A DNA stretch of 53,026 bases from an uncultured Planctomycetia bacterium (GTDB taxonomy: Bacteria; Omnitrophota; Gorgyraeia; Duberdicusellales; 4484-171). Of the stretch, positions 4,230 to 36,573 are shown piece by piece (position 1 is the first letter of the stretch; each line of letters opens with the position of its first letter). Location: positions 1 to 53,026 of the forward strand of contig CAZPYY010000002.1 of the NCBI GenBank assembly GCA_964590995.1, written 5' to 3'. Below the pieces are notes generated by a model. It did not search any database. It saw only the letters and a list, made by a program, of their open reading frames with translations, and was not told where the DNA came from. The position numbers and the translations under genes are program-made.

Positions 4230-4247
4230 TTGTGATTTTATTCACAA
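4230..4247. promoter_or_regulatory. Rex-type operator, 18-bp palindrome TTGTGATTTTATTCACAA
   Basis: Matches the published Rex box consensus TTGTGAAnnnnTTCACAA in both half-sites. It lies 13 nt downstream of the -10 element, over the expected transcription start. A rex gene is encoded in the same operon (18101-18754). Confidence 0.65.
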
Positions 4248-6151: not shown

Positions 6152-6152
6152 A

Positions 6153-7636: not shown

Positions 7637-7637
7637 T

Positions 7638-8078
7638 ATGAGTGTAAAATTAAAAGCATTATTAAAATCACCTTGGGTTTTTCATCTTTCTACCGGGAGT
7701 TGTAATAATTGCGATATTGAGATATTAGACTGTCTTACTCCTAGGTTTGATGTTGAAAGGTTTGGAATGCTTTTAGCTGGGAGCATAAAGCATGCCGACG
7801 TACTCTTAGTTACTGGTTCAGCTAATAGAAAATCAATGGAGCGAGTCAAGAGATTATATGAGCAAGTACCTAAGCCTTGTTTGGTAGTGGCAATTGGAGA
7901 GTGCTCTTTATCTCGAGGTATGTTTATACATAGCTACAATTGTCCGGTTCCGATAGATAAGATTATACCAGTAGATGTTTACATACCGGGATGTCCGCCT
8001 AAGCCAGAGGCTATCATTGCTGGTGTGGTTAAATTGGTCGGAAAGGTAGAAGATACGCTTAAGAAGAAGGGAAAGTAA
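7638..8078 (+). CDS. [NiFe] hydrogenase small subunit, NuoB/HycG/MbhJ type
   Basis: CNNCDIE, GECS and PGCPPKPE provide the four Cys ligands of the proximal (N2-like) 4Fe-4S cluster. Confidence 0.85.
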   Translation: MSVKLKALLKSPWVFHLSTGSCNNCDIEILDCLTPRFDVERFGMLLAGSIKHADVLLVTGSANRKSMERVKRLYEQVPKPCLVVAIGECSLSRGMFIHSYNCPVPIDKIIPVDVYIPGCPPKPEAIIAGVVKLVGKVEDTLKKKGK

Positions 8079-8551
8079 TGTATCGAAGCGACGTTTTAGG
8101 AGATATTAACCAAAAATTTAAAGAGGGCATCATTGATGTTATTGATAAGTCTTCTACCCGAGTATATATCGAGATTAAGGCTTCTTCGCTTGTTAAGATC
8201 GCAAACTATATATTTAAAGAGCTAAAAGCTAGATTTAGTATTGCTTCTGGAGTAGATGTTCGTTCTCATATGGAGATTTTATATCACTTTACCTTAGAAG
8301 ATATAAATTTAGTAATTTCTCTAAGAGTAAAGTTAGATAAGTCAAAGCTAGAGATAGATTCGCTTACTCCTTCATTTGAAGCTGCAAATTGGATTGAGCG
8401 GGAAATCCATGAGATGCTGGGAATTAATTTTAAGGGCCATCCGGATTTAAGAAGACTTCTTTTGTCAGAGGATTGGCCTGAAGGTGTCTATCCTTTACGC
8501 AGAGACTATAAAGAGTGGGATAAAAAAGCAATTAGAGATAGAGGAGTATAG
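8078..8551 (+). CDS. NuoC/MbhK/HycE-N-like subunit
   Basis: ANWIEREIHEMLGINFKGHPD matches the NuoC (30 kDa subunit) signature. The ATG overlaps the upstream stop. Confidence 0.8.
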   Translation: MYRSDVLGDINQKFKEGIIDVIDKSSTRVYIEIKASSLVKIANYIFKELKARFSIASGVDVRSHMEILYHFTLEDINLVISLRVKLDKSKLEIDSLTPSFEAANWIEREIHEMLGINFKGHPDLRRLLLSEDWPEGVYPLRRDYKEWDKKAIRDRGV

Positions 8552-9735
8552 TGGCAAGAACAATAGTACCGATAGGGCCTTATCATCCTTTACAAGAAGA
8601 ACCAGAGTTCTTTACCCTTACTGTTGAGGGTGAAAAGATTATTGCTGTTGATGTTGAGGTTGGTTATAACCACCGGGGCATAGAAAAGCTCTCCGAGATG
8701 AAAACTTTTGATCAGTCTACCTTTGTTATTGAGAGAATTTGCGGTATTTGTTCTACTAGCCACCCTTTTGCTTACACTAGAGCAGTTGAGGATATTATCC
8801 CCTTGGAGGTTCCTGAGCGGGCTAAGTATATCCGAACCATAATCGCTGAAGGTGAGAGAATACACTCGCATCTCTTATGGTTAGGTTTAGCTGGACACTT
8901 CTTAGGATATAATACAGTCTATATGTGGGCTTGGAAATTACGCGAAGAGATTTTAGATGCAATGGAAGTTCTATCCGGAAATAGAAATAATTATGCGATG
9001 TTTAAACCTGGGGGGGTAAGGAGAGATATAAAGGCTGAGGATATTCCAGGAGTAGTTAAGAAGGTAGATTCAATCATACCGACGTTAATAATGCTTAAGA
9101 AAGCTGTTATGGATGATCCAGTCTTACATGCCCGAACTAAAGGGGTGGGTAAGCTTAGCAGGGAAGAAGCAATAAATTATTCGGCCTTGGGTCCAACCGC
9201 AAGAGCATCTGGTGTAGCCAGAGATTTGAGAAAAGATTGTCCTTATGGAGCTTATGAGAGGTTAGATTGGGAGATGATTGTAACCTCTAATGGTGATGTC
9301 TTTGATAAGTTAGTAGTAAGAGTTCTAGAGACCTTTGAGTCTATAAAAATAATAAAGTACTGTCTCCTGAATCTTCCCAAAGGCGAGATCGATGCTCAAA
9401 TCAAGAGCATTCCTTCCGGAGAAGGTATTGGCCAGATTGAAGCGCCAAGAGGAGAGTGCTTCCATTATGTAAAGAGTGACGGCACTAACCGGCCGGCTCG
9501 TCATAAGGTCAGGGCGCCAACTTTTATGAATCTGCCAACTTATAAATCAACTGTTGTTGGGCAGACTATATCTGATGCTACAATAATCTTTGCAGCTATT
9601 GATCCTTGCTATTGCTGTACAGAGAGAATGGCTGTACGCAATACTAGCGGTGAGAAAATTTATAACGGAGAAGATTTGATTCGGCTTTCACAAGAGAAGA
9701 CCGCTAAGATAAAAAATAAATTAGGTATTAAATGA
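8551..9735 (+). CDS. Group-4 [NiFe] hydrogenase large (catalytic) subunit, NuoD/HycE/MbhL type
   Basis: The N-terminal RICGICSTSH motif (CxxC, Cys64/Cys67) and C-terminal DPCYCCTER motif (DPCxxCxxR) are both intact. This indicates a true Ni-Fe site rather than an Mbx or complex I relative. A 35-aa tail follows the Arg cleavage position. GTG start. Confidence 0.9.
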   Translation: MARTIVPIGPYHPLQEEPEFFTLTVEGEKIIAVDVEVGYNHRGIEKLSEMKTFDQSTFVIERICGICSTSHPFAYTRAVEDIIPLEVPERAKYIRTIIAEGERIHSHLLWLGLAGHFLGYNTVYMWAWKLREEILDAMEVLSGNRNNYAMFKPGGVRRDIKAEDIPGVVKKVDSIIPTLIMLKKAVMDDPVLHARTKGVGKLSREEAINYSALGPTARASGVARDLRKDCPYGAYERLDWEMIVTSNGDVFDKLVVRVLETFESIKIIKYCLLNLPKGEIDAQIKSIPSGEGIGQIEAPRGECFHYVKSDGTNRPARHKVRAPTFMNLPTYKSTVVGQTISDATIIFAAIDPCYCCTERMAVRNTSGEKIYNGEDLIRLSQEKTAKIKNKLGIK

Positions 9736-11387
9736 GCTTAGTTGAACAATTATTCAAGATTGATAACCTTTCCATTTTTGTAGGGATATTTATCGGAATA
9801 TTCTCCTTAGTGACAATTATCTATTCAGCAGGCTTTATGAAGAGAAGTAAGGGGCTGATTCGTTATTACCTATATATAGTCCTTACTCTCCTAGCTTCTT
9901 TAGGTGCTGTTTTCTCCAACAATCTTATTCTGTTTATGGTCTTCTGGGGCTTCCTAGGCCTGCTTTTATACCTTTTGATTAGTTTTGGCGAGAAAGAAAA
10001 TACTTCAGCTACAGCAAAGAAGGCTTTTATAATAATTGGCGGTACCGATGCCTTTATGATATTGGGTTTAGCCTTTGTCTGGAAGATCTCCGGAGCATTG
10101 CAGATGGATAAAATAACTATCGCCTTAAACAGCAAGATAGCTGTTTGGGCTTATCTTTGCCTTGCTGCTGGTGCTTTTGCTAAGGCTGGAGCCATGCCCT
10201 TTCATACTTGGGTTCCTGATACTGCCCAAGATGCACCCACTCCGGTAACTGCCTTCCTACCGGCTTCTTTAGATAAGCTTCTTGGTATTTACTTCTTAGC
10301 CAGATTATCTTTGAATATCTTTGAGATGGATAGTGGTATGAATACATTTTTAATGGTGGTGGGCAGCATTACTATTGTTGCTGCAGTTATGATGGCTCTA
10401 ATCCAGCATGATTTAAAGAGGCTTTTGGGCTATCATGCTGTAAGCCAGGTTGGGTATATGGTTTTGGGTATTGGTACTGGTAGCCTTTTAGGCATCGCTG
10501 GAGGCTTATTTCATATGCTTAATAACGCTATTTATAAATCCTGTTTATTTTTAGGCGGGGGTGCAGTTGAGAAGAAAGCAGGGACAAGTGATTTAGAAAA
10601 ATTAGGCGGGTTTGCTAAGATTATGCCTATTACTTTTGGAGCCTTCTTGTTGGCTTCTTTAGCTATATCCGGGATTCCGCCTTTTAACGGTTTTGCTTCT
10701 AAGTGGATGATTTATCAAAGCATAATCAATACAGCTAGTAGTGGTGGGTATCTCTGGGTAGTATGGCTTATTGCTGCTTTGTTTGGCAGTGCTCTTACCT
10801 TAGCGAGTTTTATGAAGCTGGTGCATGCTGTTTTCTTGGGCCAACCTTCTGGGGAAGAGAAGGCATTAAATAATAAGAGGGGTGAAACTACCCCGGCTAT
10901 GTGGATTCCTCAAGTTTCTCTGGCCCTTCTTTGTCTTATCTTTGGTGTATTTGCTTATCAAATACCGCTTAAGATATTTATCCTTCCTAGTTTAGGGGGC
11001 GAGGTTGAGTTCCTTGGAATTTGGAATGCAAGTTTGGCTACTGTATTAATAATTGTAGGAATTGTAATTGGTATGATAATTTACCTTTTAGGTAAGGTGA
11101 CTAAGGCAAGAGAAGTGGGCGGTTTTGTAGGAGGAGAGAATTTAGAGAAACATCCTCAGATGCGAATTTCCGGAACTGAATTTTACAACACAATTCAGGA
11201 AATGGGAATTTTAAAGATTATTTATGAACTGGCCAAGAAAAAGGTATTTGATCTTTATGATATAGGTAGAAGAGTAGCCTTTGTTTTTGTTAGAATACTG
11301 CGCTATATCCACAATGGTGTGCTCCCTACATATATGGCTTGGTGTCTTTTAGGTATGATAATACTTTTTTATGCTTTGCGAGGCTAG
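9732..11387 (+). CDS. mrpA: Antiporter-like subunit, MrpA N-terminal / NuoL family
   Basis: 551 aa polytopic protein. Contains the proton-conducting membrane transporter motifs HTWVPDTAQDAPTPVTA and LLGYHAVSQVGYM. Confidence 0.8.
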   Translation: MSLVEQLFKIDNLSIFVGIFIGIFSLVTIIYSAGFMKRSKGLIRYYLYIVLTLLASLGAVFSNNLILFMVFWGFLGLLLYLLISFGEKENTSATAKKAFIIIGGTDAFMILGLAFVWKISGALQMDKITIALNSKIAVWAYLCLAAGAFAKAGAMPFHTWVPDTAQDAPTPVTAFLPASLDKLLGIYFLARLSLNIFEMDSGMNTFLMVVGSITIVAAVMMALIQHDLKRLLGYHAVSQVGYMVLGIGTGSLLGIAGGLFHMLNNAIYKSCLFLGGGAVEKKAGTSDLEKLGGFAKIMPITFGAFLLASLAISGIPPFNGFASKWMIYQSIINTASSGGYLWVVWLIAALFGSALTLASFMKLVHAVFLGQPSGEEKALNNKRGETTPAMWIPQVSLALLCLIFGVFAYQIPLKIFILPSLGGEVEFLGIWNASLATVLIIVGIVIGMIIYLLGKVTKAREVGGFVGGENLEKHPQMRISGTEFYNTIQEMGILKIIYELAKKKVFDLYDIGRRVAFVFVRILRYIHNGVLPTYMAWCLLGMIILFYALRG

Positions 11388-11390
11388 ATA

Positions 11391-11939
11391 ATGGTTGAGC
11401 TATATATCTTACTAATATTTATGATTGTGGGAGCAATTGTTGCTACTGAGCTAAAAGATCTTCTATCTTCAGTAATAGCAGTTGGTGCTGTAGGCTTAGG
11501 GCTTTCCATAGTCTTTTTAATACTTAAAGCACCGGATGTAGCCATTACCCAGCTAGTGGTTGAAATATTGTGTTTGATTATTTTGATTCGAGCAACCCTA
11601 AAGAAAGATATTCCCTTTGCAACAACAGGTAGGTGGTTTTTAAATACGCTTATTACTGTTACTTTTATTACCATGTTTTTATTTGTCGCTGCAAAAGCCT
11701 TGAAAGAGTTGCCAAGTTTTGGTTATCCGATTATGAAGGTTGCTAAAACATACCTTGCTAATGGTTTACAACAGACTGGTGCAGCTAATGTTGTTTCTTC
11801 GGTAATATTAGATTTTAGGGCATATGATACCTTGGGTGAAGCCACGATATTATTCACTGCTGTAATTGGAGTCTTGGCCGTTGTGCGTAAAATCGGTAGA
11901 AAAAAACAAGATGAGACAATAGAGGAGGAAGATGAGTAG
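11391..11939 (+). CDS. MrpA C-terminal-like / MbhD-MbhE-like membrane subunit (DUF4040 plus MnhB-type segment)
   Basis: APDVAITQLVVE (DUF4040-like) and ILDFRAYDTLGEATILF (MnhB-like) motifs. Confidence 0.65.
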   Translation: MVELYILLIFMIVGAIVATELKDLLSSVIAVGAVGLGLSIVFLILKAPDVAITQLVVEILCLIILIRATLKKDIPFATTGRWFLNTLITVTFITMFLFVAAKALKELPSFGYPIMKVAKTYLANGLQQTGAANVVSSVILDFRAYDTLGEATILFTAVIGVLAVVRKIGRKKQDETIEEEDE

Positions 11940-12384
11940 AGAGCACGATAAGGGTATGTCAGTAATTGTTAAGACGATCACTCGTCTTACAATAGGACTA
12001 ATACTGCTCTATGGTATTTATATAGTCACTCATGGTCATGTATCACCGGGTGGAGGGTTTGCCGGAGGTGTTATTATAGCCCTTTCTTTTGTCCATCTTA
12101 TGTTAGCTTACGGTAAGGAAACTGCCCTGAAAAAGTTTCCTAAAGGCTTGGTTTCGTTCCTAGAGAGCACCGGTGCAGTAATGTTCTTAGCTATAGCTTT
12201 CCTGGGTTTTACTGGAGGATACTTTTTCTTAAATTTTATAAGTAAGGGAAAGCCCTACGAGTTATTTAGTGCCGGAATTATCCCTCTTTGTAATATAGCA
12301 ATATGTCTTAAGGTCGGTGCCGGACTTTTTGCAATATTTGTTGCCTTAGTCTTATTGAAATTAGAGTCAGAGGAGAAGAAATGA
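11932..12384 (+). CDS. mrpB: Mrp antiporter subunit B-like (MnhB/MbhF)
   Basis: 150 aa with 4 TM helices and an SPGGGFAGGV motif typical of MnhB domains. Confidence 0.7.
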   Translation: MSREHDKGMSVIVKTITRLTIGLILLYGIYIVTHGHVSPGGGFAGGVIIALSFVHLMLAYGKETALKKFPKGLVSFLESTGAVMFLAIAFLGFTGGYFFLNFISKGKPYELFSAGIIPLCNIAICLKVGAGLFAIFVALVLLKLESEEKK

Positions 12385-12725
12385 TAATATATTTGCTTTG
12401 TTTAATGCTTTTTTGCGTAGGGCTATATTGTATCTTACGAAAGCGTAATATTATTAAGATTATCGTTGGTGTCATTATATCTGAGTATGCAGCTAATCTG
12501 TTTTTTATCTTGGTAGCCTATCGTATTGGCGGCAGAGCTCCCATATTCTCATCTCAAGCAGATATCTCTGCTTCTACTATGGTCGATCCCTTACCGCATG
12601 CTTTGGTTCTTACAGCTATTGTTATTGGTTTAGCTACCACAGCTTTATTAGTTGCTATTGCTATGAGAATTTATGAAAAATATGGTACTTTTGATATTAC
12701 AAAAATTAGGGAGTTAAGAGGATGA
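12381..12725 (+). CDS. mrpC: Mrp antiporter subunit C / NuoK-like (MbhG)
   Basis: 114 aa with 3 TM helices. Size, position and the DPLPHALVLTAIVIG motif match MnhC/NuoK. Confidence 0.75.
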   Translation: MIIYLLCLMLFCVGLYCILRKRNIIKIIVGVIISEYAANLFFILVAYRIGGRAPIFSSQADISASTMVDPLPHALVLTAIVIGLATTALLVAIAMRIYEKYGTFDITKIRELRG

Positions 12726-14227
12726 TTCCAGGCATTAATACAATACCCCTTTTTGTGGCAATAGCCTTAGCCGGAGCTTTCTTAATTTCTCTGGCTGGTA
12801 AAAAAATAAAGTGGGTACCAGACACATTGGGGAATCTTACTACTTTTGCTTTACTTTGCCTCTCTATCTTTGCGGTGAAGCTCTCAGGTTCTCAGGGAAC
12901 TCTGGTTTATGGTGTTGGTTATTGGAATCCGCCAGTAGGCATAGCCATGGTTCTAGATGGCTTAACTTCATTTATGCTTGTTACTGTAAACCTAGTTGCT
13001 TTTATCATCTCGATCTATGCGATAAATTACATGGAGAAGTATACTTCAAAGTGGAAATTCTATACCTTGTTCCTTCTGATGTTAGCCGGAATGAATGGAG
13101 TAATTATTACCGGTGATATCTTTAATTTGTTTGTATTCTTAGAGATTGCTTCGGTAGCAAGTTATGCTTTGGTTGCTTTTGGAACTGAACGCCATGAGCT
13201 AGAAGCTGCTTTTAAGTATGCGGTTATGGGTACAGTAGGTTCACTATTTATTCTTCTGGGGATTGCCCTTTTATATAGCCGCACCTCTACCTTGAATATG
13301 GCTGATATGGGTAGTGTTTTAGCTGGGAAGGGAAGTACTGACTTGATTCGTTTGGTGAGCGTTTTATTCCTAATGGGTTTTGGTCTTAAAGCTGCCCTTG
13401 TCCCTTTTCATGCCTGGTTGCCTGATGCTCATCCTTCAGCACCGGCTCCGATATCCGCTATGCTTTCGGGAGTATTAATAAAATCTCTAGGTATCTATGC
13501 CTTGATTAGAATATTCTATAATGTAGTAGGGATGAGTCCTGAACTAGCCTCAATAATAATGCTTTTAGGAGCAATATCTATGGTTGTTGGTGGATTGCTG
13601 GCTTTAGGGCAATGGGATTTTAAACGGCTCTTAGCTTACTCTTCTATAAGCCAGGTAGGTTATATTGTTTTAGCTATTGGTCTTGGTACACCCTTGGGAA
13701 TATTAGCCGGGCTCTTTCATCTCTTTAACCACTCAATATTTAAGTCGTTATTATTTTTGAATTCAGGAGCAGTAGAATACTCTACCGGAACCCGAGATCT
13801 GCAGCAGATGGGCGGTTTAGGAAAGAAGATGCCCTTAACCGGCTTAACTAACCTAACAGCTTCTATGTCTATTGCCGGTGTTCCGCCCTTTAGTGGTTTC
13901 TGGAGTAAGCTATTTATTATAGTCGCAATAGTCCAAGCCGGTTACTATGGGTATGCTTTCTGGGCTGTTTTAGTGAGTGTGTTGACCTTGGCTATGTATG
14001 TTAAGGTTACCAAGTATGCTTTCTTTGGAACCTTGAAGGAGAAGTGGGAACAGATAAGAGAAGTACCTGCATTTATGAAGCTTTCAATGGCAATGTTAGC
14101 ATTCATTTGTTTAATAGGGGGAGTATTGCTTATTTCAGGGATAAAAGAGATTTTTCTGCAGCCGGCATCAAAAGCTCTCTTAGATGGCAGTAAGTATAGT
14201 AGTTTGGTTCTAAGTCAGGTGAAATAG
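12722..14227 (+). CDS. mrpD: Antiporter-like subunit MrpD / NuoM-N family (MbhH)
   Basis: 501 aa. Motifs FHAWLPDAHPSAPAPISA and LLAYSSISQVGYI. Confidence 0.85.
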   Translation: MIPGINTIPLFVAIALAGAFLISLAGKKIKWVPDTLGNLTTFALLCLSIFAVKLSGSQGTLVYGVGYWNPPVGIAMVLDGLTSFMLVTVNLVAFIISIYAINYMEKYTSKWKFYTLFLLMLAGMNGVIITGDIFNLFVFLEIASVASYALVAFGTERHELEAAFKYAVMGTVGSLFILLGIALLYSRTSTLNMADMGSVLAGKGSTDLIRLVSVLFLMGFGLKAALVPFHAWLPDAHPSAPAPISAMLSGVLIKSLGIYALIRIFYNVVGMSPELASIIMLLGAISMVVGGLLALGQWDFKRLLAYSSISQVGYIVLAIGLGTPLGILAGLFHLFNHSIFKSLLFLNSGAVEYSTGTRDLQQMGGLGKKMPLTGLTNLTASMSIAGVPPFSGFWSKLFIIVAIVQAGYYGYAFWAVLVSVLTLAMYVKVTKYAFFGTLKEKWEQIREVPAFMKLSMAMLAFICLIGGVLLISGIKEIFLQPASKALLDGSKYSSLVLSQVK

Positions 14228-14725
14228 ATGAAGAGCAGAGTAGTTTTATTTATAATCGCATTTTTAATCTGGTCCCTATTGAACTGGATACCGGATGCAC
14301 AACACCTTATAGTCGGAGTTTTTGTTGCTGCCCTTGTAGCCTTTTTAACCGGAGATTTATTTGTTACCCGGCCGCATGTATTACAGCATCCGTGGCGTTA
14401 CTGGTATTTCATTGCGCATTATTTGCCGGTATTTTTATTAGAAGTTGTGAAAGCCAATATTGATGTTGCTTATCGGGTATTACATCCTGATTTGCCGATA
14501 AATCCCGGAATTGTAAAGGTAAAAACAATTTTAAAGAGCGATACGGCTTTAACATTTTTGGCTAACTCGATAACTTTAACTCCTGGTACTATGAGTGTGG
14601 ATATAGACAGGGATAATGGTGTTTTATATATACACTGGATTAATGTGAAGGCAAAAGATATTGAAAGTGCTACAAAAATCATTGTCCAGCGCTTTGAAAA
14701 AATACTAAAGAAGATTTTTGATTAA
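14228..14725 (+). CDS. mrpE: Mrp antiporter subunit E (MnhE/MbhA)
   Basis: 165 aa with two N-terminal TM helices followed by a soluble domain. ANIDVAYRVLHP and SITLTPGT motifs are typical of MnhE. Confidence 0.7.
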   Translation: MKSRVVLFIIAFLIWSLLNWIPDAQHLIVGVFVAALVAFLTGDLFVTRPHVLQHPWRYWYFIAHYLPVFLLEVVKANIDVAYRVLHPDLPINPGIVKVKTILKSDTALTFLANSITLTPGTMSVDIDRDNGVLYIHWINVKAKDIESATKIIVQRFEKILKKIFD

Positions 14726-14735
14726 AGGGGATAAT

Positions 14736-15104
14736 ATGAAGATGTTTAGATGGATTGCTGGTGCGATAGTTTTAACGGGAATTATAGGTCTGATTATAAT
14801 TCGGCCGCTCCCTTTCCTTTTCTACGCTGATCTTCCTTATGTGAATTTCTTAGGCAGGGCTCTCTACATACTTATTTTAGCTTGTTTTTTGTGCCTCTAT
14901 CGTATCTATAGGGGGCCGACCGGTGCTGATCGGGTAGTGGCAATTGATATTTTGGGTATCATGATTGCTGGTTTGTGCGCAGTATTGACTATTTCTACTG
15001 GAAGGTCTTGGTATATTGATATTGGAATAGCCTGGGCTTTGCAGAGTTTTATAAGTACCTTAGCGCTCTCCAAATATTTAGAAGGAAGAGGGTTCGATGA
15101 GTAG
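14736..15104 (+). CDS. mrpF: Mrp antiporter subunit F (MnhF/MbhB)
   Basis: Three TM helices and a RIYRGPTGADRVVAID motif typical of MnhF. ATG 14736 follows AAGGGG at 14725-14730 and is preferred over the overlapping track start at 14718. Confidence 0.7.
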   Translation: MKMFRWIAGAIVLTGIIGLIIIRPLPFLFYADLPYVNFLGRALYILILACFLCLYRIYRGPTGADRVVAIDILGIMIAGLCAVLTISTGRSWYIDIGIAWALQSFISTLALSKYLEGRGFDE

Positions 15105-15432
15105 TATTATTGGTTTGGTATTTATTAGTTTAGGATTAGCTTTTGATCTTTTTGGTGTTTTAGGCTTAGTGCGCCTTCCCGATGTTTACAATCGTCTGCA
15201 GGCAGCTACAAAGTGTGTCACTTTAGGCACTTGCAGTATTCTATTCGGAACATTTCTTGTGGTTGGCCCGGTAGCATCAGGCATGAAAGCGCTCTTGTGT
15301 ATGGTCTTTTTACTATTAACCTCTCCGGTGGCTGCCCATGCTATAGCCAGAGGTGCGCATAGGGCAGGGGTAAAGCTTAGCAAAGAGAGCGTTGTAGATA
15401 AGTACTTGGAAGATAAAGAGGGAGAAGTGTAG
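15097..15432 (+). CDS. mrpG: Mrp antiporter subunit G (MnhG/MbhC)
   Basis: 111 aa. LVRLPDVYNRLQAATK and LTSPVAAHAIARGA motifs are typical of MnhG. Confidence 0.75.
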   Translation: MSSIIGLVFISLGLAFDLFGVLGLVRLPDVYNRLQAATKCVTLGTCSILFGTFLVVGPVASGMKALLCMVFLLLTSPVAAHAIARGAHRAGVKLSKESVVDKYLEDKEGEV

Positions 15433-15461
15433 TTTAAAAGGTTAAAGTTCAAAGTTAGAAG

Positions 15462-16076
15462 ATGCAAATGCGGTTACCAAAGATCAGAGAATTAACTGAA
15501 GCTATAAAAGCCCTTATAAAAGGGCCTTATACTTCAAAGTTTCCTATTGAGCCACACCAACCTCACCCTAATTTTAGAGGACAGCCCAAGTTTAACGACC
15601 AGAAGTGTGTGGGTTGCACTGCCTGTAAAGAGGTTTGTCCGGTAGAGGCGATTGATTATCAAGATGTTGTTGACGATAAGCTTAATCCGCGAAGAGTTAT
15701 GATTCACTATACTGATACCTGCATATTCTGCGGTCAGTGCGAAGCTGCTTGCATTGCCGATAATGAGGGTATCAAATTATCTAATGATTGGGAGCTTTCC
15801 TTCTTTGATCGCAGTAAAGCTGATGAGCGAATAGAGAAAGAGCTGCAACTCTGCGAGATTTGCGGCGAAGTTATTGCTTGTTGTGACCACCTAGAGTGGA
15901 TCGTTAAGAAGGTAGGAGAGCTTAGTTTTTCCAGCCCGACACTATATCTTCTACGTCTCAGGAGCTTAGGTATTGTAGACCAAAACATCATATCCGCCTT
16001 AGCCGATCAAGGACGCTCTGACCGGGTAAAGATTCTTTGTGCTAGCTGCAGAAGAAAGACCACCCTGACTATTTAA
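15462..16076 (+). CDS. 2x[4Fe-4S] ferredoxin subunit, NuoI/MbhN/HycF-like, with a Cys-rich C-terminal extension
   Basis: CVGCTACKEVCP and CIFCGQCEAAC motifs. The extra C-terminal region carries CEICGEVIACCDH and CASCRRK. Confidence 0.75.
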   Translation: MQMRLPKIRELTEAIKALIKGPYTSKFPIEPHQPHPNFRGQPKFNDQKCVGCTACKEVCPVEAIDYQDVVDDKLNPRRVMIHYTDTCIFCGQCEAACIADNEGIKLSNDWELSFFDRSKADERIEKELQLCEICGEVIACCDHLEWIVKKVGELSFSSPTLYLLRLRSLGIVDQNIISALADQGRSDRVKILCASCRRKTTLTI

Positions 16077-16081
16077 TTGAA

Positions 16082-16582
16082 ATGAGAACTAATTTGAAAG
16101 ATATACTTAAAGGAAAAATTGTTATCGTTGGTATCGGAAACATTATCCGCGGGGATGATGGCTTCGGACCTTTGCTGATTGAAAAGATAAAGGGTGGGGT
16201 TGAGATGATGTGTTTAGATGGCGGGATTGCTCCTGAGAATTACCTGGGCAAAATCACCAAAGAAAATCCCGATACGGTTTTAATTATTGATGCTGTTCAT
16301 CTAGGCAAGAATCCTGGTGAGTACGAGATTTTAAAGGGAGAAGATATAGCAAAGTGCGGATTCACTACTCATGATATCTCCCCGGTAATGTTTATAGAGT
16401 ATTTAACCAGAGAGACCGAGGCTAATATTTATATGCTTGGGGTTCAACCTCAAGGTATTGAATTAGGTTCAGAGATGTCCAATAAGCTTAAAACAGCATT
16501 AGAGGAACTATCAGGAAAAATTTTGGAGGCAGTCAATGCACGAGACTCACTTAATAAAACCGATAATCAAAGGCATAGTTAA
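16082..16582 (+). CDS. hycI: Hydrogenase maturation endopeptidase (HycI/HyaD family)
   Basis: VGIGNIIRGDDGFGP, IIDAV and the HD motif provide the metal ligands of this protease family. This fits the 35-aa C-terminal tail on the large subunit. Confidence 0.8.
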   Translation: MRTNLKDILKGKIVIVGIGNIIRGDDGFGPLLIEKIKGGVEMMCLDGGIAPENYLGKITKENPDTVLIIDAVHLGKNPGEYEILKGEDIAKCGFTTHDISPVMFIEYLTRETEANIYMLGVQPQGIELGSEMSNKLKTALEELSGKILEAVNARDSLNKTDNQRHS

Positions 16583-16778
16583 ACACGCCCAAGAAGAAGG
16601 GGCAAAGAATATAACCAAGCTAAGGTTAAAGATTGGAGAGCTTATTGGTGTTAAAGAAGAGTCGTTTCGCGAGACTTTTAACCTTTTAGCTAAGGGGACT
16701 ATGCTTGAAGGTACAGAGTTGGAGATTGTTTTTTTTCCGAGTACGCGCATAGAAGTTGTTTCCTTTGATTGTGATTAG
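16536..16778 (+). CDS. hypA: HypA-like nickel metallochaperone, truncated form lacking the zinc-finger domain
   Basis: Starts with the MHE nickel-binding N-terminus and shows HypA-like KLRLKIGELIGVKEESF and LEGTELEI segments. It is only 80 aa and has no CxxC pairs. A strong GGAGG lies 6 nt upstream. It overlaps the protease gene by 47 nt. Confidence 0.6.
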   Translation: MHETHLIKPIIKGIVKHAQEEGAKNITKLRLKIGELIGVKEESFRETFNLLAKGTMLEGTELEIVFFPSTRIEVVSFDCD

Positions 16779-16789: not shown

Positions 16790-18097
16790 ATGTGTTACGC
16801 AATTCCCGGAAAGGTAAAAGCGATAAGGGGAAGAGAAGTTTTAGTAGACTACTTCGGTGAAGAGAAAAAAGCAATTAATGAGTTCTACGATATTGCTGTT
16901 GGAGATTATATCTGTGCTCAAGGCGGGTTTGTAATAAAAAAAGTTAAAGAAGATGAAGCTAGAGAAGTCTTATCAGCTTGGCAGGAATTATTCTTCGAGC
17001 TCCAAGACGTTGACCTGCGTCTTTCCCGGCTGGACTCAGAAGAAGGTAGCGATAAGAAGCTACGTCTTATTTTAGATAAGGCCTTAGAAAATATCCCTTT
17101 AAAGAAAGATGAATTATCGTATTTGCTTGACTTAGGTAGCCAACAATCTTGCCAGCTTCTTTATAAATCGGCAAATTTCTTACGCCAGAAATACCATAGA
17201 AACTCCTGTTGTATCCACGGAATAATTGAGATTTCAAATAATTGTCAGCAACAGTGTACTTATTGTGGGATATCAACGCACAATAAAACGCTCTTGCGTT
17301 ACCGGATGAGTCCGGATGAGATTATCGAGACTTCTGTTGAGGCAGTAGAAAGATATGGTTTCCAGGCTCTGGTTTTACAGAGCGGAGAAGATCCTGGCTA
17401 TAGCGTAGATGAGTTAGCTATAACCATAAGGAAAATTAAGGAGAAGGTTCCAGTATTAATCTGTATCAGCTTTGGCGAGGTGGGATTAGAGGGATTAGAA
17501 AGACTTTATCTTGCCGGAGCAAGAGCTATACTTATGCGTTTCGAAACCTCTAACCCGAAAATTTTTGCCCAGGTTCATCCCGGGCAGAAACTCGAAACTA
17601 GGTTAGAACATATTAGGAAAGCTTCCTTATTAGGTTATCTGATTATGACCGGTGCGCTTATTGGTCTGCCCGGACAAACTAATCATGATATTATAAATGA
17701 TATTTATCTGGCTAAAGAATTAGGCGCTGAGATGTATTCTTTTGGTCCTTTTCTGCCACATCCCCAAACACCTTTGGGGAATCTTGCACCTCCGAGGGAA
17801 GAGTTGGCTTTAAAGACCTTAGCCTTGGCTCGGCTCATTGATCCTGAGCGAGCCAAAATTTTAGTAACTACAGCCCTAGAGACTCATGCACCGACTACTC
17901 GCAAGAGGGGGTTACTTTCAGGTGCTAACTCTTTGATGCTTAATGTTACACCAGTTAAATACCGAAAGCTTTATGAGATTTACCCTAATAAGGCTTATAA
18001 CAAGGAGTTAATAGATAAGCAAATTGATGCGGCAATAGCTTTACTTAAATCTTTAGGCCGGGCTCCTACAGATTTAGGAGTAAGCGAGGTGAATTAA
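16790..18097 (+). CDS. hydE: Fusion protein: HypC/HupF-type [NiFe] chaperone (residues 1 to about 72) plus HydE-type radical-SAM maturase (residues about 90 to 435)
   Basis: N-terminus MCYAIPGKVKAI..VGDYICAQGGFVIKKV..EEA matches HypC and includes Cys2. The remainder aligns with HydE: CQQQCTYCG (CX3CX2C, Cys152/156/159), LQSGEDP, GLPGQT, GPFLPHPQTPL, YPNK. It is a single uninterrupted ORF. Confidence 0.8.
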   Translation: MCYAIPGKVKAIRGREVLVDYFGEEKKAINEFYDIAVGDYICAQGGFVIKKVKEDEAREVLSAWQELFFELQDVDLRLSRLDSEEGSDKKLRLILDKALENIPLKKDELSYLLDLGSQQSCQLLYKSANFLRQKYHRNSCCIHGIIEISNNCQQQCTYCGISTHNKTLLRYRMSPDEIIETSVEAVERYGFQALVLQSGEDPGYSVDELAITIRKIKEKVPVLICISFGEVGLEGLERLYLAGARAILMRFETSNPKIFAQVHPGQKLETRLEHIRKASLLGYLIMTGALIGLPGQTNHDIINDIYLAKELGAEMYSFGPFLPHPQTPLGNLAPPREELALKTLALARLIDPERAKILVTTALETHAPTTRKRGLLSGANSLMLNVTPVKYRKLYEIYPNKAYNKELIDKQIDAAIALLKSLGRAPTDLGVSEVN

Positions 18098-18100: not shown

Positions 18101-18754
18101 ATGGGAAGAAAAAATAACAAGAATAGCTTTTCTTTGGAGACAATTAGGCGTCTTAGTCTCTATTTACGGAACTTAAAGAGATTAAAGGAGCAGAATATAG
18201 ATATTATTTCTTCAAATGAGCTGACAAAATTTCTTAATATTACTCCAGCACAATTTAGAAAAGATCTCTCTTTCTTTGGCGGGTTTGGCAAAAGAGGCGT
18301 TGGTTATAATGTTGAGAAGTTAACTGAAGAGATAGAGAATATATTAGGGGTAAACAAAGAGTGGGCAATTGCCATAGTTGGCGTGGGAAAGCTAGGAAGT
18401 GCGCTCTTAGGCTTTGAAGGGTTTTCTAAATTTAATATTAAAATAACCTTTGCTTTTGATATTGATAGAGATAAGGTAGGTAAGGTAAGGGAAGGGGTAA
18501 AGATTAACCACATAAAGGAGATAAAGGATATTATCAGGCAGAATAATATCAAAGTTGCAATAATTTCTACACCGCCGGAAGCTGCTCAAGGAGTTGCTGA
18601 TGAGTTAGCTTCCTCAGGTATTAAGGGCATTTTAAATTTTGCACCGATAGTGCTAAAAGTACCTCAAGCTGTATCAGTATCTAATGTTGATATGGCTTCT
18701 GAGCTAGAGAGTTTAATATTTCTTACTAAACGAAGACAAGGAAGGACAGGATAA
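18101..18754 (+). CDS. rex: Redox-sensing transcriptional repressor Rex
   Basis: N-terminal winged-helix region (RRLSLYLRNLKRL..ISS.EL) followed by a Rossmann GVGKLGSAL NADH-binding domain. 217 aa. Confidence 0.85.
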   Translation: MGRKNNKNSFSLETIRRLSLYLRNLKRLKEQNIDIISSNELTKFLNITPAQFRKDLSFFGGFGKRGVGYNVEKLTEEIENILGVNKEWAIAIVGVGKLGSALLGFEGFSKFNIKITFAFDIDRDKVGKVREGVKINHIKEIKDIIRQNNIKVAIISTPPEAAQGVADELASSGIKGILNFAPIVLKVPQAVSVSNVDMASELESLIFLTKRRQGRTG

Positions 18755-18758: not shown

Positions 18759-20255
18759 ATGGCCACAAAGACAATTTCACCGGATTCTTGGCTAAAGTGC
18801 CAAATCAAAAAAGAGCAGGTAGAAAAATACCTAAACAGGGGTAGGCACTTTATCGATCAGGAAGCAATTGATAGGGCCTTAGCCTCCGAACTTGAACCAT
18901 CTAAGGGCCAGATTAAAGATATTCTCGATAAATCTCTAGCTATTGAGACCTTAGAACTCAAAGAAGCAGCACTACTATTAAATGTTGAGGATGAGGATTC
19001 CTTAGTAAAAATGGCTCAAGTTGCTGGAGAGATTAAGAGGAAGGTTTATGATAATCGGATTGTTACCTTTGCTCCTTTATACATGGGTAATCTTTGCGTG
19101 AATAATTGCCTTTATTGTGGGTTTAGAAAAGATAATCTCAATATTCATAGAAGAGTGCTTCGTTTAGATGAGGTAAAGAGAGAAGCCGAAGTTTTAGCCG
19201 GTAGAATTGGCCATAAGCGCTTGATAGTAGTCTATGGAGAACATCCTCAGACCGATATAGATTATATGAGTTCAACCATAAAAACAATCTATGGAGTCAA
19301 AACAAAGACTAAAAATGGCTATGGCCAGATCCGCAGAGTTAATGTCAATGCTGCGCCTTTGTCTATTGAGGACCTTAAAATTTTACAAAAGAGCGGAATC
19401 GGAACCTATCAGGTATTCCAAGAGACCTATCACCCTGATACTTATCAGGCTCTTCATCCCAAAGGAACCCTAAAATCTGATTATCAGTGGCGATTATATT
19501 GTATTCACCGGGCATTTGAAGCTGGCATAGATGATGTTGGCATTGGTGTTCTTTTTGGTTTGTATGATTGGAAGTTTGAAGTTTTAAGTCTTCTTCTACA
19601 CTCACGAGAACTAGAAGCAAGATTTGGTGTTGGACCACATACAATTTCTTTTCCGCGTCTTGAGCCAGCAGCTAATACACCTTTTACCCAAGAATCTCGT
19701 TATAAAGTAAGCGATGAGGATTTTAAAAAGCTCATTACAATTATAAGATTAGCTGTCCCTTATACTGGAATGATTATTACTGCCCGGGAAAATGCCCAGA
19801 TGCGAAGGGAAGCTATTCCTTTAGGTTGTACCCAGACCGATGCCTCTACTCGCATTGGTATCGGCGCTTATAGTGGCCGCTATAGGGAACAAGAAGGCCA
19901 AAGACAACAATTCTTCTTGGGAGATACCAGGAGTTTAGATGAGGTAATAAGGGAATTGTCTTGTGCCGGTTATATCACTTCTTTTTGTACTGCTGGTTAT
20001 CGTTGTGGAAGAACCGGCAAGTGCATTATGGAACTCTTGAAGAATGGAGAGGAGGGTAAGCTTTGCAAATTAAATGCTGTACTTACCTTTAGAGAGTGGT
20101 TGGATGATTTTGCTACTACCGAGACTAAAGAGGCTGGCGAAGAGATTATTCAAAAAGAGTTGGCTGAGATTAAATCCCTTATGCCAAAGACTTACCCTAA
20201 AGTTCTAGAATATTATCAGAGAATTAAGAGTGGCCAGAGAGATCTTTATTTTTAA
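18759..20255 (+). CDS. hydG: HydG-like radical-SAM enzyme (ThiH/HydG family with HydG-type C-terminal domain), variant Cys motif
   Basis: CVNNCLYCGF (CX3CX2C, Cys113/117/120). The C-terminal SFCTAGYRCGRTGKC..(13)..CKLNA resembles the HydG CTACYR.GRTG...C.PNA region. 498 aa. Confidence 0.75.
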   Translation: MATKTISPDSWLKCQIKKEQVEKYLNRGRHFIDQEAIDRALASELEPSKGQIKDILDKSLAIETLELKEAALLLNVEDEDSLVKMAQVAGEIKRKVYDNRIVTFAPLYMGNLCVNNCLYCGFRKDNLNIHRRVLRLDEVKREAEVLAGRIGHKRLIVVYGEHPQTDIDYMSSTIKTIYGVKTKTKNGYGQIRRVNVNAAPLSIEDLKILQKSGIGTYQVFQETYHPDTYQALHPKGTLKSDYQWRLYCIHRAFEAGIDDVGIGVLFGLYDWKFEVLSLLLHSRELEARFGVGPHTISFPRLEPAANTPFTQESRYKVSDEDFKKLITIIRLAVPYTGMIITARENAQMRREAIPLGCTQTDASTRIGIGAYSGRYREQEGQRQQFFLGDTRSLDEVIRELSCAGYITSFCTAGYRCGRTGKCIMELLKNGEEGKLCKLNAVLTFREWLDDFATTETKEAGEEIIQKELAEIKSLMPKTYPKVLEYYQRIKSGQRDLYF

Positions 20256-20269: not shown

Positions 20270-21265
20270 ATGGAATATAGAAAGCTAGGGAGTTCCTCAT
20301 TAGAGGTTTCAGTTATTTGTTTAGGCACTTGGGCTTTTGGCTCAGATAAGTGGTGGGGCCATCAAGAGGATAAGGATTCCTTGGCAGTATTAGAGGAGGC
20401 CTTAGCTAGAGGAGTTAACTTTGTTGATACTGCTCCGGTCTATGGACGCGGGCATTCCGAAGAGGTTATCGGATCGTTCATTGCCCAGGAGAACATAAGA
20501 GAAAAAGTAATTTTAGCCACAAAATTAGGGTTGCGCTGGGATGGTAGAAGCATTTTTCATGATTTATCCAGAAAGAGGATGTTTGATGAGATTGACGCCT
20601 CGCGTAGACGCCTTAAAACAGATTACTTTGATCTCTATCAAGTACATTGGTATGATCCTGATACTCCGGTTGGACAGGTTGCCGAGATAATGTATAAATT
20701 TTACCAAGAAGGTATCATTAAAGCTATCGGAGTCAGCAATTACTCTGTGGCTCAGATGAACGAGTTTAAAAAATATTCACCTATCCATAGTTTGCAACCG
20801 CCTTATAGTATGTTTGACCGGGGGATTGAAGAGGATATTATACCCTTTTGCATCGAGAACTCTATTGGCATTATTACTTATGCTCCTTTATATAGTGGTT
20901 TATTAACCGGAAAGTTCTTCTTAGATGATACAAAAATTCCCAGTGATATTAACCGTAAGATGAAGAGGCAAGATTTAGAAGAGCCGTGTTTTTCAATCAA
21001 TAAAACAACCCTTCTTAAATTAAAAGATATAGCTGATAAGTATCGAAAGACTTTGGCTCAGTTAGTATTAAATTGGAACTACAACCAGCAAGGAATAACC
21101 TCAGCTATTGCCGGAACCAGAAAACCTGCTCAATTATATGATAACTTAGGTAGTGTTGATTGGAAAATCTCCGAGGAAGATTTGAAAACAATAGATGATA
21201 TCTTAGCCGAGAGAGTTGAGAAGATAGACAATCGGTTGAGATCAGATCTCAACCGCAAAGTATAG
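20270..21265 (+). CDS. Aldo/keto reductase family oxidoreductase
   Basis: GTWAFG, NFVDTAPVYGRGHSEE, LYQVHW and IKAIGVSNY motifs. Confidence 0.85.
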   Translation: MEYRKLGSSSLEVSVICLGTWAFGSDKWWGHQEDKDSLAVLEEALARGVNFVDTAPVYGRGHSEEVIGSFIAQENIREKVILATKLGLRWDGRSIFHDLSRKRMFDEIDASRRRLKTDYFDLYQVHWYDPDTPVGQVAEIMYKFYQEGIIKAIGVSNYSVAQMNEFKKYSPIHSLQPPYSMFDRGIEEDIIPFCIENSIGIITYAPLYSGLLTGKFFLDDTKIPSDINRKMKRQDLEEPCFSINKTTLLKLKDIADKYRKTLAQLVLNWNYNQQGITSAIAGTRKPAQLYDNLGSVDWKISEEDLKTIDDILAERVEKIDNRLRSDLNRKV

Positions 21266-21286
21266 AAGAACTATTGTCGGTAGGAA

Positions 21287-22216
21287 ATGAATATACTTAT
21301 AACCGGAGCTACTGGATTTATTGGTAAGAATTTAGTGGAGGGCCTCTTTAGGAAGGGCGGACACACTCTTTTCTGTTTTGTAAGAAATCCCCAAAAAGCA
21401 AAAGCCTTAGAACCTTATGGAGTAAAACTTATCTATGGTGACATTACTGATAAGGCTTCCTTAGATAAACTCCTCAATTATAAAATCGACGTTATATTTC
21501 ATAATGCTGCCTATGTAGAAAATAAGAACCCCAAGCTTTTATATCAAGCTAATGTGTTAGGTAGCGAGAACATCTGTGAGCTAGCTCTATCTTTAGGAGT
21601 GAAGAAGATTATTTATACTAGTTCAGTAGCTGTTGTAAGCGGAAACCCCCAAGTGCCTCTCACCGAAGACCTACCCTTTCAAGCTACTAATATCTATGGC
21701 GAGTCTAAGATTGAAGCCGAAAAAGTAATTCTTAAGCATAGAGAAAAAGGTTTGAATACAGTGATTGTCCGTCCTCCTATGGTCTATGGGGAAGACGAAC
21801 CTCATCTGCTGAAAGTTTTGCTCTTTATTACTAAGCACAGGCTTTTTCCTTTAATTGATAAGGGTAAGGCTAAATTTCACCTTGGTTATGTGAAGAATGT
21901 TACTGAAGCAATGATTTTTTTATTAGATAAAAATGGGGCTTTGGAGGGTTCTTTTTTTGTTGGTGATGAAGAGGTTCTTACGGTAAGAGAGGTATTTGAT
22001 ACTCTTGCTAGGGCTTTAAAGGTAAAACCACTACCTAATCTTCCGGCTTGGCTAAAGCCAATAGTGATACGTCTACCTTCTATTGGCAGAAAAATAAGTT
22101 TCTTCTCTAAGGACCGGGTTTATAGTTTAGAAAGAATAAAGTCTTTAGGGTTTAAAGTGCCTTTTAAGGCCAGAGAAAGCCTGGCTAAGAGCGCTCAATC
22201 TTTTTCAAGGAATTAG
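21287..22216 (+). CDS. NAD-dependent epimerase/dehydratase (extended SDR)
   Basis: ITGATGFIGKNL Rossmann motif and the YGESK catalytic YxxxK. Confidence 0.8.
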   Translation: MNILITGATGFIGKNLVEGLFRKGGHTLFCFVRNPQKAKALEPYGVKLIYGDITDKASLDKLLNYKIDVIFHNAAYVENKNPKLLYQANVLGSENICELALSLGVKKIIYTSSVAVVSGNPQVPLTEDLPFQATNIYGESKIEAEKVILKHREKGLNTVIVRPPMVYGEDEPHLLKVLLFITKHRLFPLIDKGKAKFHLGYVKNVTEAMIFLLDKNGALEGSFFVGDEEVLTVREVFDTLARALKVKPLPNLPAWLKPIVIRLPSIGRKISFFSKDRVYSLERIKSLGFKVPFKARESLAKSAQSFSRN

Positions 22217-22219
22217 CCT

Positions 22220-22834
22220 ATGGAAAATAAAAAAGTACTTGCTTTTGATTTAGGAAGAGTTCTCTTTGACTTTGATTATAATATTGCCTTAGAGAAGATC
22301 AAAGATAAAATTGGTGTACCGGTTCAAGAGGTAATTAGAGAATTGTTTGAGAGTGAGTTCGGGTTAAACTTTGAGAGGGGAGAGGCTAGCCCCGATGAGT
22401 TTTATTCCCGCTTCAAAAATACCTTTAAAGCAACTTTAAGCTACGAATACTTTGTTGACACTTGGTGTAAGATATTCTCACCTAAAAAAGATGTGATAGG
22501 TTTAGTAAGATATCTTAAAGGAAGATATCCTTTATACCTTATCTCTAATATAAATGAACTCCATTTTGAATACCTTTTTAAGGAGTACCGGGAAGTTTTT
22601 TCCCTTTTTAATGAGTTGATTCTCTCCTTTAAGATTAAGTCAGTTAAGCCTGAAGGATTAATCTATCAGGTCCTAAAAGAGACGGCCGGGGTAGGTTTTG
22701 AAGATATAATCTACATTGATGACCGCAAAGATTTGATTACAAAGGCTAAGGATTTTAACCTACAATGCTTACAATTTACTAGCTTTAATCAGCTGTTGGC
22801 CGATTTAAAAAATCTCGGTGTTTCTGTTGGCTAA
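22220..22834 (+). CDS. HAD-superfamily hydrolase, subfamily IA (YihX-like)
   Basis: FDLGRVLFDFD N-terminal motif (as in E. coli YihX), LISNIN, and IYIDDR. Confidence 0.65.
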   Translation: MENKKVLAFDLGRVLFDFDYNIALEKIKDKIGVPVQEVIRELFESEFGLNFERGEASPDEFYSRFKNTFKATLSYEYFVDTWCKIFSPKKDVIGLVRYLKGRYPLYLISNINELHFEYLFKEYREVFSLFNELILSFKIKSVKPEGLIYQVLKETAGVGFEDIIYIDDRKDLITKAKDFNLQCLQFTSFNQLLADLKNLGVSVG

Positions 22835-30740: not shown

Positions 30741-30805
30741 GTTTAGGTTTTACGCGGAATAATAGCCTAAAATTTTTTATTTCCGGGCCAAGAAAACAGG
30801 GTGCA

Positions 30806-30834
30806 CCCCGACATAACAGTCGGGGTTTTATTTT
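30806..30834 (+). terminator. Intrinsic terminator acting as riboswitch expression platform
   Basis: Hairpin CCCCGAC-ATAACA-GTCGGGG followed by TTTTATTTT, ending 5 nt before the ATG at 30840. Confidence 0.8.
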
Positions 30835-30839
30835 GTCCA

Positions 30840-31700
30840 ATGAAGAAAGTAATTTTACTTATCAACTTAGTTTTAGTATTCACTCCTTCTCTGCAAGAAA
30901 CCTCAATATCTTCTGAGGTTACCCAACAGAGAATTATCTCAATTGCTCCGGCTACTACAGAGATTCTATTTAGTTTAGGCTTGGACGATGAGATTGTGGG
31001 TGTGACTACATTTTGCAACTACCCCGAAGAGACTCAAAACAAAGAGAGAGTAGGTACATTTAGTCAGCCAGGTATCGAGAGAATCCTATCCTTAAGGCCA
31101 GATATAGTCTTTGCTACTGGGCTAGAGCAGGCATCCGTTGTTGATAAGTTGAGAAAAGTAGGATTAAAGGTTTATGTTAGCGACCCGGCAAGTTTCAAAG
31201 AGTTATTTCGTTCAATAAGGGAAATTGCAAAGCTTATTCATAGAGAGCAGGAAGCTGACTCATTAATTGGCCAGATGGAATCAAGGATTAAGCGAATTAA
31301 TGATAAGGTTAAGCTTATCCCCCAAGAGAAGCGGCTGAGCGTATTTATTGAAATCGGGATTGATCCTTTGATGAGTGCGGGTAAAGGCTCTTTTATCGAT
31401 GAGCTAATTACTCTAGCCGGAGGCATAAATATAGCTAGTGATCTTTCCCGAAGCTATAGTTATTTTAGTAGTGAACAGGTATTGAGGCGTAATCCCGACT
31501 GCATTATTCTTGGCTATATGGATAAAGAATGGGATAAGGCAGAAGTCAAAGATAGGTTAGGTTGGGAGAATATTTCAGCAGTAAAGAATAATCGTATATA
31601 TAGCGATATAGACCCAAATCTTTTTTTTCGACCTGGGCCGAGGTTAGTCGAAGGCCTAGAGGTAATCTATGAAAGGTTGTATTTAAATGAACTTAAGTAA
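30840..31700 (+). CDS. btuF: Periplasmic corrinoid/siderophore-type ABC substrate-binding protein (BtuF-like)
   Basis: Signal peptide MKKVILLINLVLVF. RIISIAPATTEILFSLGL and PDIVFA motifs belong to the cluster-A binding-protein family. It is riboswitch controlled. The start was moved from the track's 30801, which lies inside the terminator. Confidence 0.75.
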   Translation: MKKVILLINLVLVFTPSLQETSISSEVTQQRIISIAPATTEILFSLGLDDEIVGVTTFCNYPEETQNKERVGTFSQPGIERILSLRPDIVFATGLEQASVVDKLRKVGLKVYVSDPASFKELFRSIREIAKLIHREQEADSLIGQMESRIKRINDKVKLIPQEKRLSVFIEIGIDPLMSAGKGSFIDELITLAGGINIASDLSRSYSYFSSEQVLRRNPDCIILGYMDKEWDKAEVKDRLGWENISAVKNNRIYSDIDPNLFFRPGPRLVEGLEVIYERLYLNELK

Positions 31701-32649: not shown

Positions 32650-32652
32650 TCT

Positions 32653-35668: not shown

Positions 35669-35681
35669 AAAGGGTTAACGG

Positions 35682-36416: not shown

Positions 36417-36441
36417 ACCGATAAACGAAGGAGGTATTAGG

Positions 36442-36573
36442 ATGAAGAAGAAAACATTGAAAAAAGAAACAGTCAAGAAGGGAAAAACCCCAGTTTCTTA
36501 CCGTTTAAAGTGTAAGAGAACTGCTAATGGGTTATCACATTACGTGCCAGCAGAGAAGAAGGCACTAGTATAA
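36442..36573 (+). CDS. Unannotated 43-codon ORF: lysine-rich small peptide (candidate radical-SAM substrate/precursor)
   Basis: Translated by hand as MKKKTLKKETVKKGKTPVSYRLKCKRTANGLSHYVPAEKKALV*. AAGGAGG at 36428-36434 lies 7 nt before the ATG. It is below the 60-aa cutoff of the ORF track and sits directly upstream of the rSAM/SPASM gene. Confidence 0.5.
   Translation: MKKKTLKKETVKKGKTPVSYRLKCKRTANGLSHYVPAEKKALV

Follow-up and report, generated by a model that had tools for sequence, protein, structure and literature searches.

A HydG subclade with a shifted cysteine in its auxiliary-cluster motif, with a member in an Omnitrophota [NiFe]-hydrogenase operon

The 53,026-nucleotide stretch of DNA analysed here (the window) is from contig CAZPYY010000002.1 of an uncultured bacterium of the Omnitrophota. 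It encodes a radical S-adenosylmethionine (radical-SAM) protein whose C-terminal cysteine motif differs from the one usually associated with HydG. We believe this gene is very probably a genuine HydG of a large monophyletic subclade with the spacing CX5CX19C, in which one ligand has shifted and the enzyme is otherwise normal. On this reading the CTAG motif of the subclade is a lineage marker and not the sign of a new function. This matters since the usual account of HydG has CX2CX22C as the conserved motif holding the auxiliary cluster, the site at which the Fe(CO)2(CN) synthon forms. Screens based on that motif would wrongly reject the CX5CX19C genes as HydG. The clade also provides a natural experiment in which to see how CO/CN chemistry is tuned by the geometry at the cluster and dangler iron.

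The cysteine motif and the protein that carries it

The gene and its relevant parts are as follows.

18759 to 20255, plus strand: HydG-family radical-SAM tyrosine lyase of 498 residues, CX5CX19C subtype (TIGR03955, alignment to 4WCX, AlphaFold2 model)
19095 to 19118, plus strand: radical-SAM cluster motif C113-x3-C117-x2-C120 (CVNNCLYC, from the translation), all three cysteines invariant in the CTAG clade
19599 to 19601, plus strand: His281, aligned to the conserved His of T. italicus HydG that is reported as a dangler-iron ligand
19986 to 20066, plus strand: auxiliary-cluster motif C410-TA-G413-YR-C416-x19-C436 (CX5CX19C) with a variable C422 inside it (translation, codons and alignments)

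Over the motif region the protein translates as SFCTAGYRCGRTGKCIMELLKNGEEGKLCKLNA, and its C-terminal segment can be written SFC410-TA-G413-YR-C416-GRTGK-C422-IMELLKNGEEGKL-C436-KLNA. The codons are tgt (19986, C410), act, gct, ggt (19995, G413), tat, cgt and tgt (20004, C416), followed by tgc at 20022 for C422 and tgc at 20064 for C436, so that positions 19986-20066 are exactly C410 through C436. The aligned segment is SYCTACYRMGRTG...FCLPNA in the T. italicus HydG (4WCX) and SFCTACYRKRRTG...FCTPDA in the C. hydrogenoformans HydG (4RTB). The C-TA-C of both lies in the same gap-free columns as the C-TA-G of the window protein, which thus lacks the canonical CX2CX22C spacing because its middle cysteine is Gly413. 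A preliminary description of this DNA had given CTAC and CX2CX22C as the canonical form, and these alignments show that this was correct. It had also stated that the middle cysteine is replaced by glycine while the outer two keep their spacing, and the gap-free alignment agrees.

There is little in the rest of the protein to set it apart from HydG. It scores 463.2 bits against the HydG model TIGR03955 (cut-off 312.15) over profile positions 8-470 of 470. Against the ThiH model TIGR02351 it scores 257.2 bits, below the cut-off of 380, and the match stops at residue 405, beyond which a 90-residue C-terminal domain is present. Pfam assigns Radical_SAM and BATS domains. The alignment to 4WCX (E=1e-131, residues 29-498) is almost gap-free and has zero gaps across the C-terminal domain. 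With 55 relatives as input, AlphaFold2 gives a model with a mean predicted local distance difference test score (pLDDT) of 89 and a predicted template modelling score (pTM) of 0.90. The model superposes on 4WCX_A with a template modelling score of 0.96 (normalised to the target) and a root-mean-square deviation of 1.8 A over 471 columns. Residues 412-415 form a short helical turn in this model with C416 at the end of the turn, and the canonical cysteine would fall inside it. The preliminary description had found a ThiH/HydG radical-SAM core with CVNNCLYC and a HydG-specific C-terminal domain in this protein. Both stand, the core by the translation and the TIGR03955 score and the domain by the alignment and fold match to 4WCX.

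His281 pairs with the His of MLYHANH in 4WCX. We take the dangler-iron His of the T. italicus enzyme to be His265; counting along the chain gives 266. His281 is invariant in the CTAG clade and is found in at least 90% of the canonical representatives. A conserved His is described as the dangler-iron ligand of HydG in a structural review, where the residue is not numbered (PMC10114646). The ratio of nonsynonymous to synonymous substitution rates (dN/dS) between the window hydG and an 88%-identical relative (locus L004) is 0.13, which is purifying selection. We considered that this could be a pseudogene or a decaying copy and ruled it out, since the open reading frame is intact, the catalytic residues are invariant and dN/dS is this low.

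Taken against known systems, the window protein shares with the canonical HydGs of 4WCX and 4RTB the CX3CX2C motif, the barrel and C-terminal domain, the first and last auxiliary cysteines and the dangler-aligned His. It differs from them in its CX5CX19C spacing, in 16 clade-specific substitutions and in its place within a [NiFe] operon. It has the homologous radical-SAM tyrosine-lyase barrel and BATS domain of ThiH (TIGR02351; 7PD1), but ThiH lacks the C-terminal cluster domain. The variant is not entirely new to print. A putative HydG of Clostridium autoethanogenum, CLAU_RS03260, has been reported in a genome-mining paper of 2022 with a C-x5-C-x19-C motif at its C-terminus that was proposed to bind an Fe-S cluster (PMC9431212), and the same paper, citing Duffus et al. 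2012, calls the C-terminal cluster-binding motif of HydG variable. The printed C-terminal cysteine spacing of CLAU_RS03260 is the same as that of the window protein, but its radical-SAM and C-terminal motifs lie about 20 residues closer together (109-116 to 386-412 as compared with 113-120 to 410-436), so it is at most a possible member of the same clade.

Spread of the variant and the genes around it

The best 120 database matches, at 66-91% identity to the window HydG, all read SFCTAGYRC. These matches belong to Omnitrophota, Thermodesulfovibrio, Syntrophorhabdaceae, Syntrophales and Elusimicrobiota. When one genome per species was scanned, 80 loci emerged at 59-72% identity, and 78 of these have CTAGYRC. 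The two exceptions, one CTAAYRC and one CTSGYRC, both keep C416. By their record titles the 80 loci span more than 15 phyla. The titles include Omnitrophota, Planctomycetota, Lentisphaerota, Verrucomicrobiota, Fibrobacterota, Spirochaetota and Desulfobacterota (with Desulfosarcina widdelii), as well as Thermodesulfobacterium, Elusimicrobiota, Thermotogota, Clostridia, Dehalococcoidia, WOR-3, Hydrothermota and Auribacterota. The exact recurrence of C-TA-G-YR-C in so many relatives means the pattern is neither chance nor a sequencing error.

Conservation by column was taken from an alignment of 114 sequences, 95 of them members of the CTAG clade. C410, C416 and C436 are invariant in all 95, and G413 is conserved in 99%. 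In canonical HydGs, counted as 17 canonical representatives at 50% identity plus two from loci L110 and L111, column 413 is always Cys and column 416 never is. Of the two extra cysteines that the preliminary description had pointed out, then, C416 is a fixed feature of the clade. C422 is not, being Cys in 57% of the members and K, R, H or N in the others, and for this reason we reject it as a cluster ligand. The 16 clade-specific positions are D98, T103, H162, T358, D361, S363, G367, Q383, T407, G413, C416, I423, L427, E432, K437 and W447. Another 43 positions are invariant across the CTAG clade and the canonical HydGs together, H281 and the radical-SAM cysteines among them. A library clustered at 50% identity represents the variant by essentially a single entry (P0121). 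The preliminary description had raised the question of whether CTAG-type proteins form a clade, and in a neighbour-joining tree they are monophyletic, a single branch nested within the canonical HydG representatives.

Within flanks of up to 10 kb, 69 of the 80 species loci have hydF, hydA and/or a standalone hydE near the CTAG-type hydG. Thermodesulfovibrio yellowstonii has a 70%-identical CTAG HydG in the order hydA-hydA-TM1266-like-aspartase-hydG-small ORF-hydF-hydE. Ca. Makaraimicrobium thalassicum has a 71%-identical one clustered with hydA, a TM1266-like gene, hydF and hydE. Judged by gene context, therefore, the same variant is carried by many HydGs that accompany H-cluster assembly, which contradicts the suggestion of the preliminary description that the motif implies some other role. 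The preliminary description had itself named such a result as one that would refute it.

In the mechanism we favour, the cysteine that is the middle ligand of the auxiliary [4Fe-4S] cluster would have slipped three residues along one short turn, from i to i+3. Glycine would fill the vacated site 413 and the second-shell residues would have co-adapted. The radical-SAM cluster, the barrel, the dangler-aligned His and the fold of the C-terminal domain would all be retained. The enzyme would still cleave tyrosine, with dehydroglycine yielding Fe-bound CO and CN- at the auxiliary cluster. On the pattern of conservation C416 is most likely the third cluster ligand, and the product is most likely unchanged from that of canonical HydG. 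Every member of the clade has C416 and no canonical HydG counted has Cys there, which points naturally to a differently ligated auxiliary cluster. The preliminary description had proposed such a cluster, and that proposal is reasonable. The cluster and its dangler-iron site are likely to persist, given that three cysteines are invariant, the His is kept and the fold has not changed.

Several points weigh against a ligand shift in an otherwise ordinary HydG. The motif loop of the AlphaFold2 model, residues 411-420, has a pLDDT of 61, which is low confidence. The clade-specific T358, D361 and S363, in the loop that is SQxSAG in canonical enzymes, together with I423, E432 and W447, could tune the chemistry of the cluster. 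There is no hydF, hydA or standalone hydE across the 53-kb window. We know of no member of the CTAG clade that has been biochemically characterised, so the function is read from context.

The preliminary description had suggested that the rewired motif makes a different auxiliary cluster and possibly with it a different organometallic product, for some purpose other than the H-cluster. In its favour, the ligand shift is real, the 16 substitutions lie in and around the cluster domain and the gene of the window is part of a [NiFe] operon. Even so we find this suggestion very hard to accept. It is contradicted by the neighbours of the same motif in most species and by the conserved fold and dangler-aligned His. 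It also fails from the other direction. A canonical CTAC HydG directly follows the HypC/HydE-like fusion gene described below on two contigs, L110 and L111. No alignment column separates the fusion-linked CTAG HydGs from the classical ones, and the two kinds are interspersed in the neighbour-joining tree. From this it follows that motif and context are independent. Another alternative is that the auxiliary cluster is held by only two protein cysteines, or by C422 instead of C416 as the third. Its support is P0123, a 497-residue 50%-identity representative that is sister to the CTAG clade. P0123 reads SFCTAGYREGRTG, with CTAGYRE at the motif and thus neither C413 nor C416, and is possibly a HydG-like protein whose motif holds just two cysteines. 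For the clade itself we give this alternative hardly any credence, since C416 is kept in every member while C422 comes and goes, and canonical HydGs never have Cys at 416.

The HypC/HydE-like fusion and the [NiFe] operon

The position of the window hydG is a separate matter from its motif. The gene ends a long array on the same strand, made up of the [NiFe] operon, HycI, HypA, a HypC/HydE-like fusion, Rex and HydG. These features are listed here.

4230 to 4247, plus strand: Rex operator-like palindrome TTGTGATTTTATTCACAA, one mismatch to TTGTGAA-N4-TTCACAA, which we take to be the Rex consensus
4309 to 16076, plus strand: membrane-bound Mrp-linked [NiFe]-hydrogenase operon with an NAD(P)H/FAD module, assigned by profile and Pfam matches, group 4g by analogy
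8551 to 9735, plus strand: [NiFe] large subunit with RICGIC and DPCYCC motifs, within that operon
16082 to 16582, plus strand: HycI-type [NiFe] large-subunit endopeptidase (TIGR00142, TIGR00072)
16536 to 16778, plus strand: short HypA of 80 residues, the N-terminal Ni-binding half only (Pfam HypA profile positions 1-68 of 112)
16790 to 18097, plus strand: HypC (residues 1-76) fused to a HydE-like radical-SAM domain (about residues 95-426) (Pfam HupF_HypC and Radical_SAM)
18101 to 18754, plus strand: Rex redox-sensing repressor, immediately upstream of hydG (NF003995, 264 bits)

The fusion protein starts with MCYAIP, and its HypC part matches 2Z1C. The HydE-like part has the radical-SAM motif CQQQCTYC. 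It scores 231 bits against the HydE model, below the cut-off of 254.6, and residues 94-426 match T. maritima HydE at E=1.5e-64 (222 bits). The family has at least 120 clusters at 90% identity, and all of them are fused. The fusion forms a large Omnitrophota family (L004-L007, L023, L089-L118 and the window), and in each case it closes a [NiFe] operon of 4g or 3b-like type, behind HycI and a short HypA. The full order of [NiFe] operon, HycI, 80-residue HypA, fusion, optional Rex and HydG is kept down to about 57-61% identity of the fusion. It is found in Omnitrophota loci (L004-L007, L023, L093-L095; fusion down to 61% identity) and on metagenome contigs with a 3b-like [NiFe] enzyme (L103, L104). 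The order is thus seen with 4g-type as well as 3b-like enzymes, and its HydG may be of the CTAG or the CTAC kind. By a manual tally, 14 of the 18 informative loci have HydG directly 3' of the fusion, and Rex and HydG stay paired in L004-L006, L023, L093-L096, L098, L103 and L104. One apparent exception to this linkage, L106, we discount. On this metagenome contig a phage Mu GemA-like gene and a DDE transposase follow the fusion (5842-7627) in place of Rex and HydG, which suggests that a mobile-element insertion broke the synteny.

It is important to realize that this fusion is not the HydE of the H-cluster. On a 127-kb contig (L089/L091) and at L108 it ends a [NiFe] operon while a standalone HydE stands a few kb away with HydF, HydG and HydA. 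Because the two coexist, the fusion is a [NiFe]-linked paralogue of HydE. Among the matches listed, the best 120 of at least 8,000 for HydF, one contig (127,175 bp) has both HydF and the fusion, and absence from the others in such a sample is uninformative. Compared with the known assembly by HypC, HypD, HypE and HypF (and HypX), the HypC domain of the fusion has the essential N-terminal Cys and stands beside HycI and HypA. It differs in being joined to a HydE-like enzyme and followed by HydG, and there is no hypB, hypD, hypE or hypF anywhere in the window.

Rex may tie these genes together. The rex gene is inside the array, between the fusion and hydG. The palindrome is 60 nt upstream of the first operon gene and just downstream of a promoter-like TTGACA-N17-TATTAT, and it is the only match in the window with fewer than three mismatches. 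Overall match counts equal chance, so the argument for an operator rests on the quality and the position of this one match.

We now come to the more surprising possibility, which concerns the context of hydG and is compatible with the ligand shift. HydG and the fusion could form a radical-SAM route, independent of HydF, that delivers an Fe-CO/CN unit to the [NiFe] large subunit in this Omnitrophota lineage. Such a route would supplement or replace HypD, HypE and HypF and the unknown anaerobic source of CO. The conserved order of genes with two kinds of [NiFe] enzyme and both kinds of HydG speaks for it, as do the position of HydG directly after the fusion, the presence of a standalone HydE beside the fusion in L089, L091 and L108 and the lack of hydF, hydA, hypB, hypD, hypE and hypF in the window. 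The published record also helps. In some Omnitrophota metagenome-assembled genomes a group 4g [NiFe] enzyme is reported to be the only hydrogenase (PMC8542988), and for a reduced Legionellales symbiont only HybD, HypA, HypB and a HydE-HypC fusion are listed for [NiFe] maturation (bioRxiv 10.64898/2026.04.11.717937).

The objections are serious, however. The window covers 53 kb, and hydF, hydA and hypDEF may lie elsewhere in the genome. At least one omnitrophote, V. archaeovorus, is reported to carry both a 4g [NiFe] and an A3 [FeFe] enzyme (PMC10066038). Co-regulation of all hydrogenase-related genes by Rex would explain the clustering too. The known product of HydG has two CO and one CN, while a [NiFe] site needs one CO and two CN. 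Nor do the fusion-linked HydGs have any residue of their own or any separate place in the tree. Any link of HydG to [NiFe] maturation is hypothetical, and we hold the route in this lineage to be possible though on balance unlikely. The broader proposal, in which HydG of either motif and the fusion make the [NiFe] Fe-CO/CN unit from tyrosine without HydF in the Omnitrophota and some other anaerobes, seems to us rather doubtful. Still, a hydG directly 3' of a [NiFe]-linked fusion is a testable lead on anaerobic [NiFe] cofactor biosynthesis and is more surprising than the motif. If true, the tyrosine-derived route would settle an old question, the origin of the CO ligand in the absence of oxygen.

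We use the group 4g label as it is used in published annotations of Omnitrophota operons (PMC8542988, PMC10066038). An excerpt of the TIGRFAM table in the Omnitrophota survey includes two genomes that each have HydE, HydF and HydG (PMC10066038). The supplements of an Antarctic-lake study contain no hyd or hyp entries.

Further observations on the window and related loci

A CTAG-type hydG also ends a [NiFe] array at L072, on a closed 1.77-Mb chromosome (OY969425.1). There it comes right after a full-length hypA, where a 4g-like operon ends (9633-11467). This locus has no fusion, and no hydF, hydA or hydE lies within 10 kb of hydG. A 311-residue open reading frame with no Pfam match is downstream of hydG.

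The HypA of the window keeps the N-terminal MHE nickel site and is missing the zinc-finger half. The length of 80 residues recurs in every fusion-bearing relative, and the HypA of L072 has 111 residues. The first genes of the [NiFe] operon (4309-6151) encode a Fer4_22 protein and an FAD/NAD(P)-binding Fe-S protein. The same pair precedes the 3b-like [NiFe] enzyme in L089, and this hints at an NAD(P)H-linked module on a 4g-type complex.

Downstream of hydG on the same strand (20270-22834) are genes for an aldo-keto reductase, an SDR/epimerase and a HAD phosphatase, which may belong to the same transcription unit as hydG. The first two also follow hydG in L004, L093 and L095, and the HAD gene is next in L004 and L093.

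Farther along the window, an EF-G-type GTPase of 1037 residues (45125-48238) has its GTP-binding domain from residue 347, behind an N-terminal extension of about 340 residues without a Pfam match. A cobalamin salvage and lower-ligand block (30801-40789) encodes a BtuF-like binding protein, a FecCD permease, an ABC ATPase, a CobC-like phosphatase, CobU, CobT and CobS. It is followed by a radical-SAM/SPASM protein, a diphthamide-synthase-like protein and a TonB-dependent receptor.

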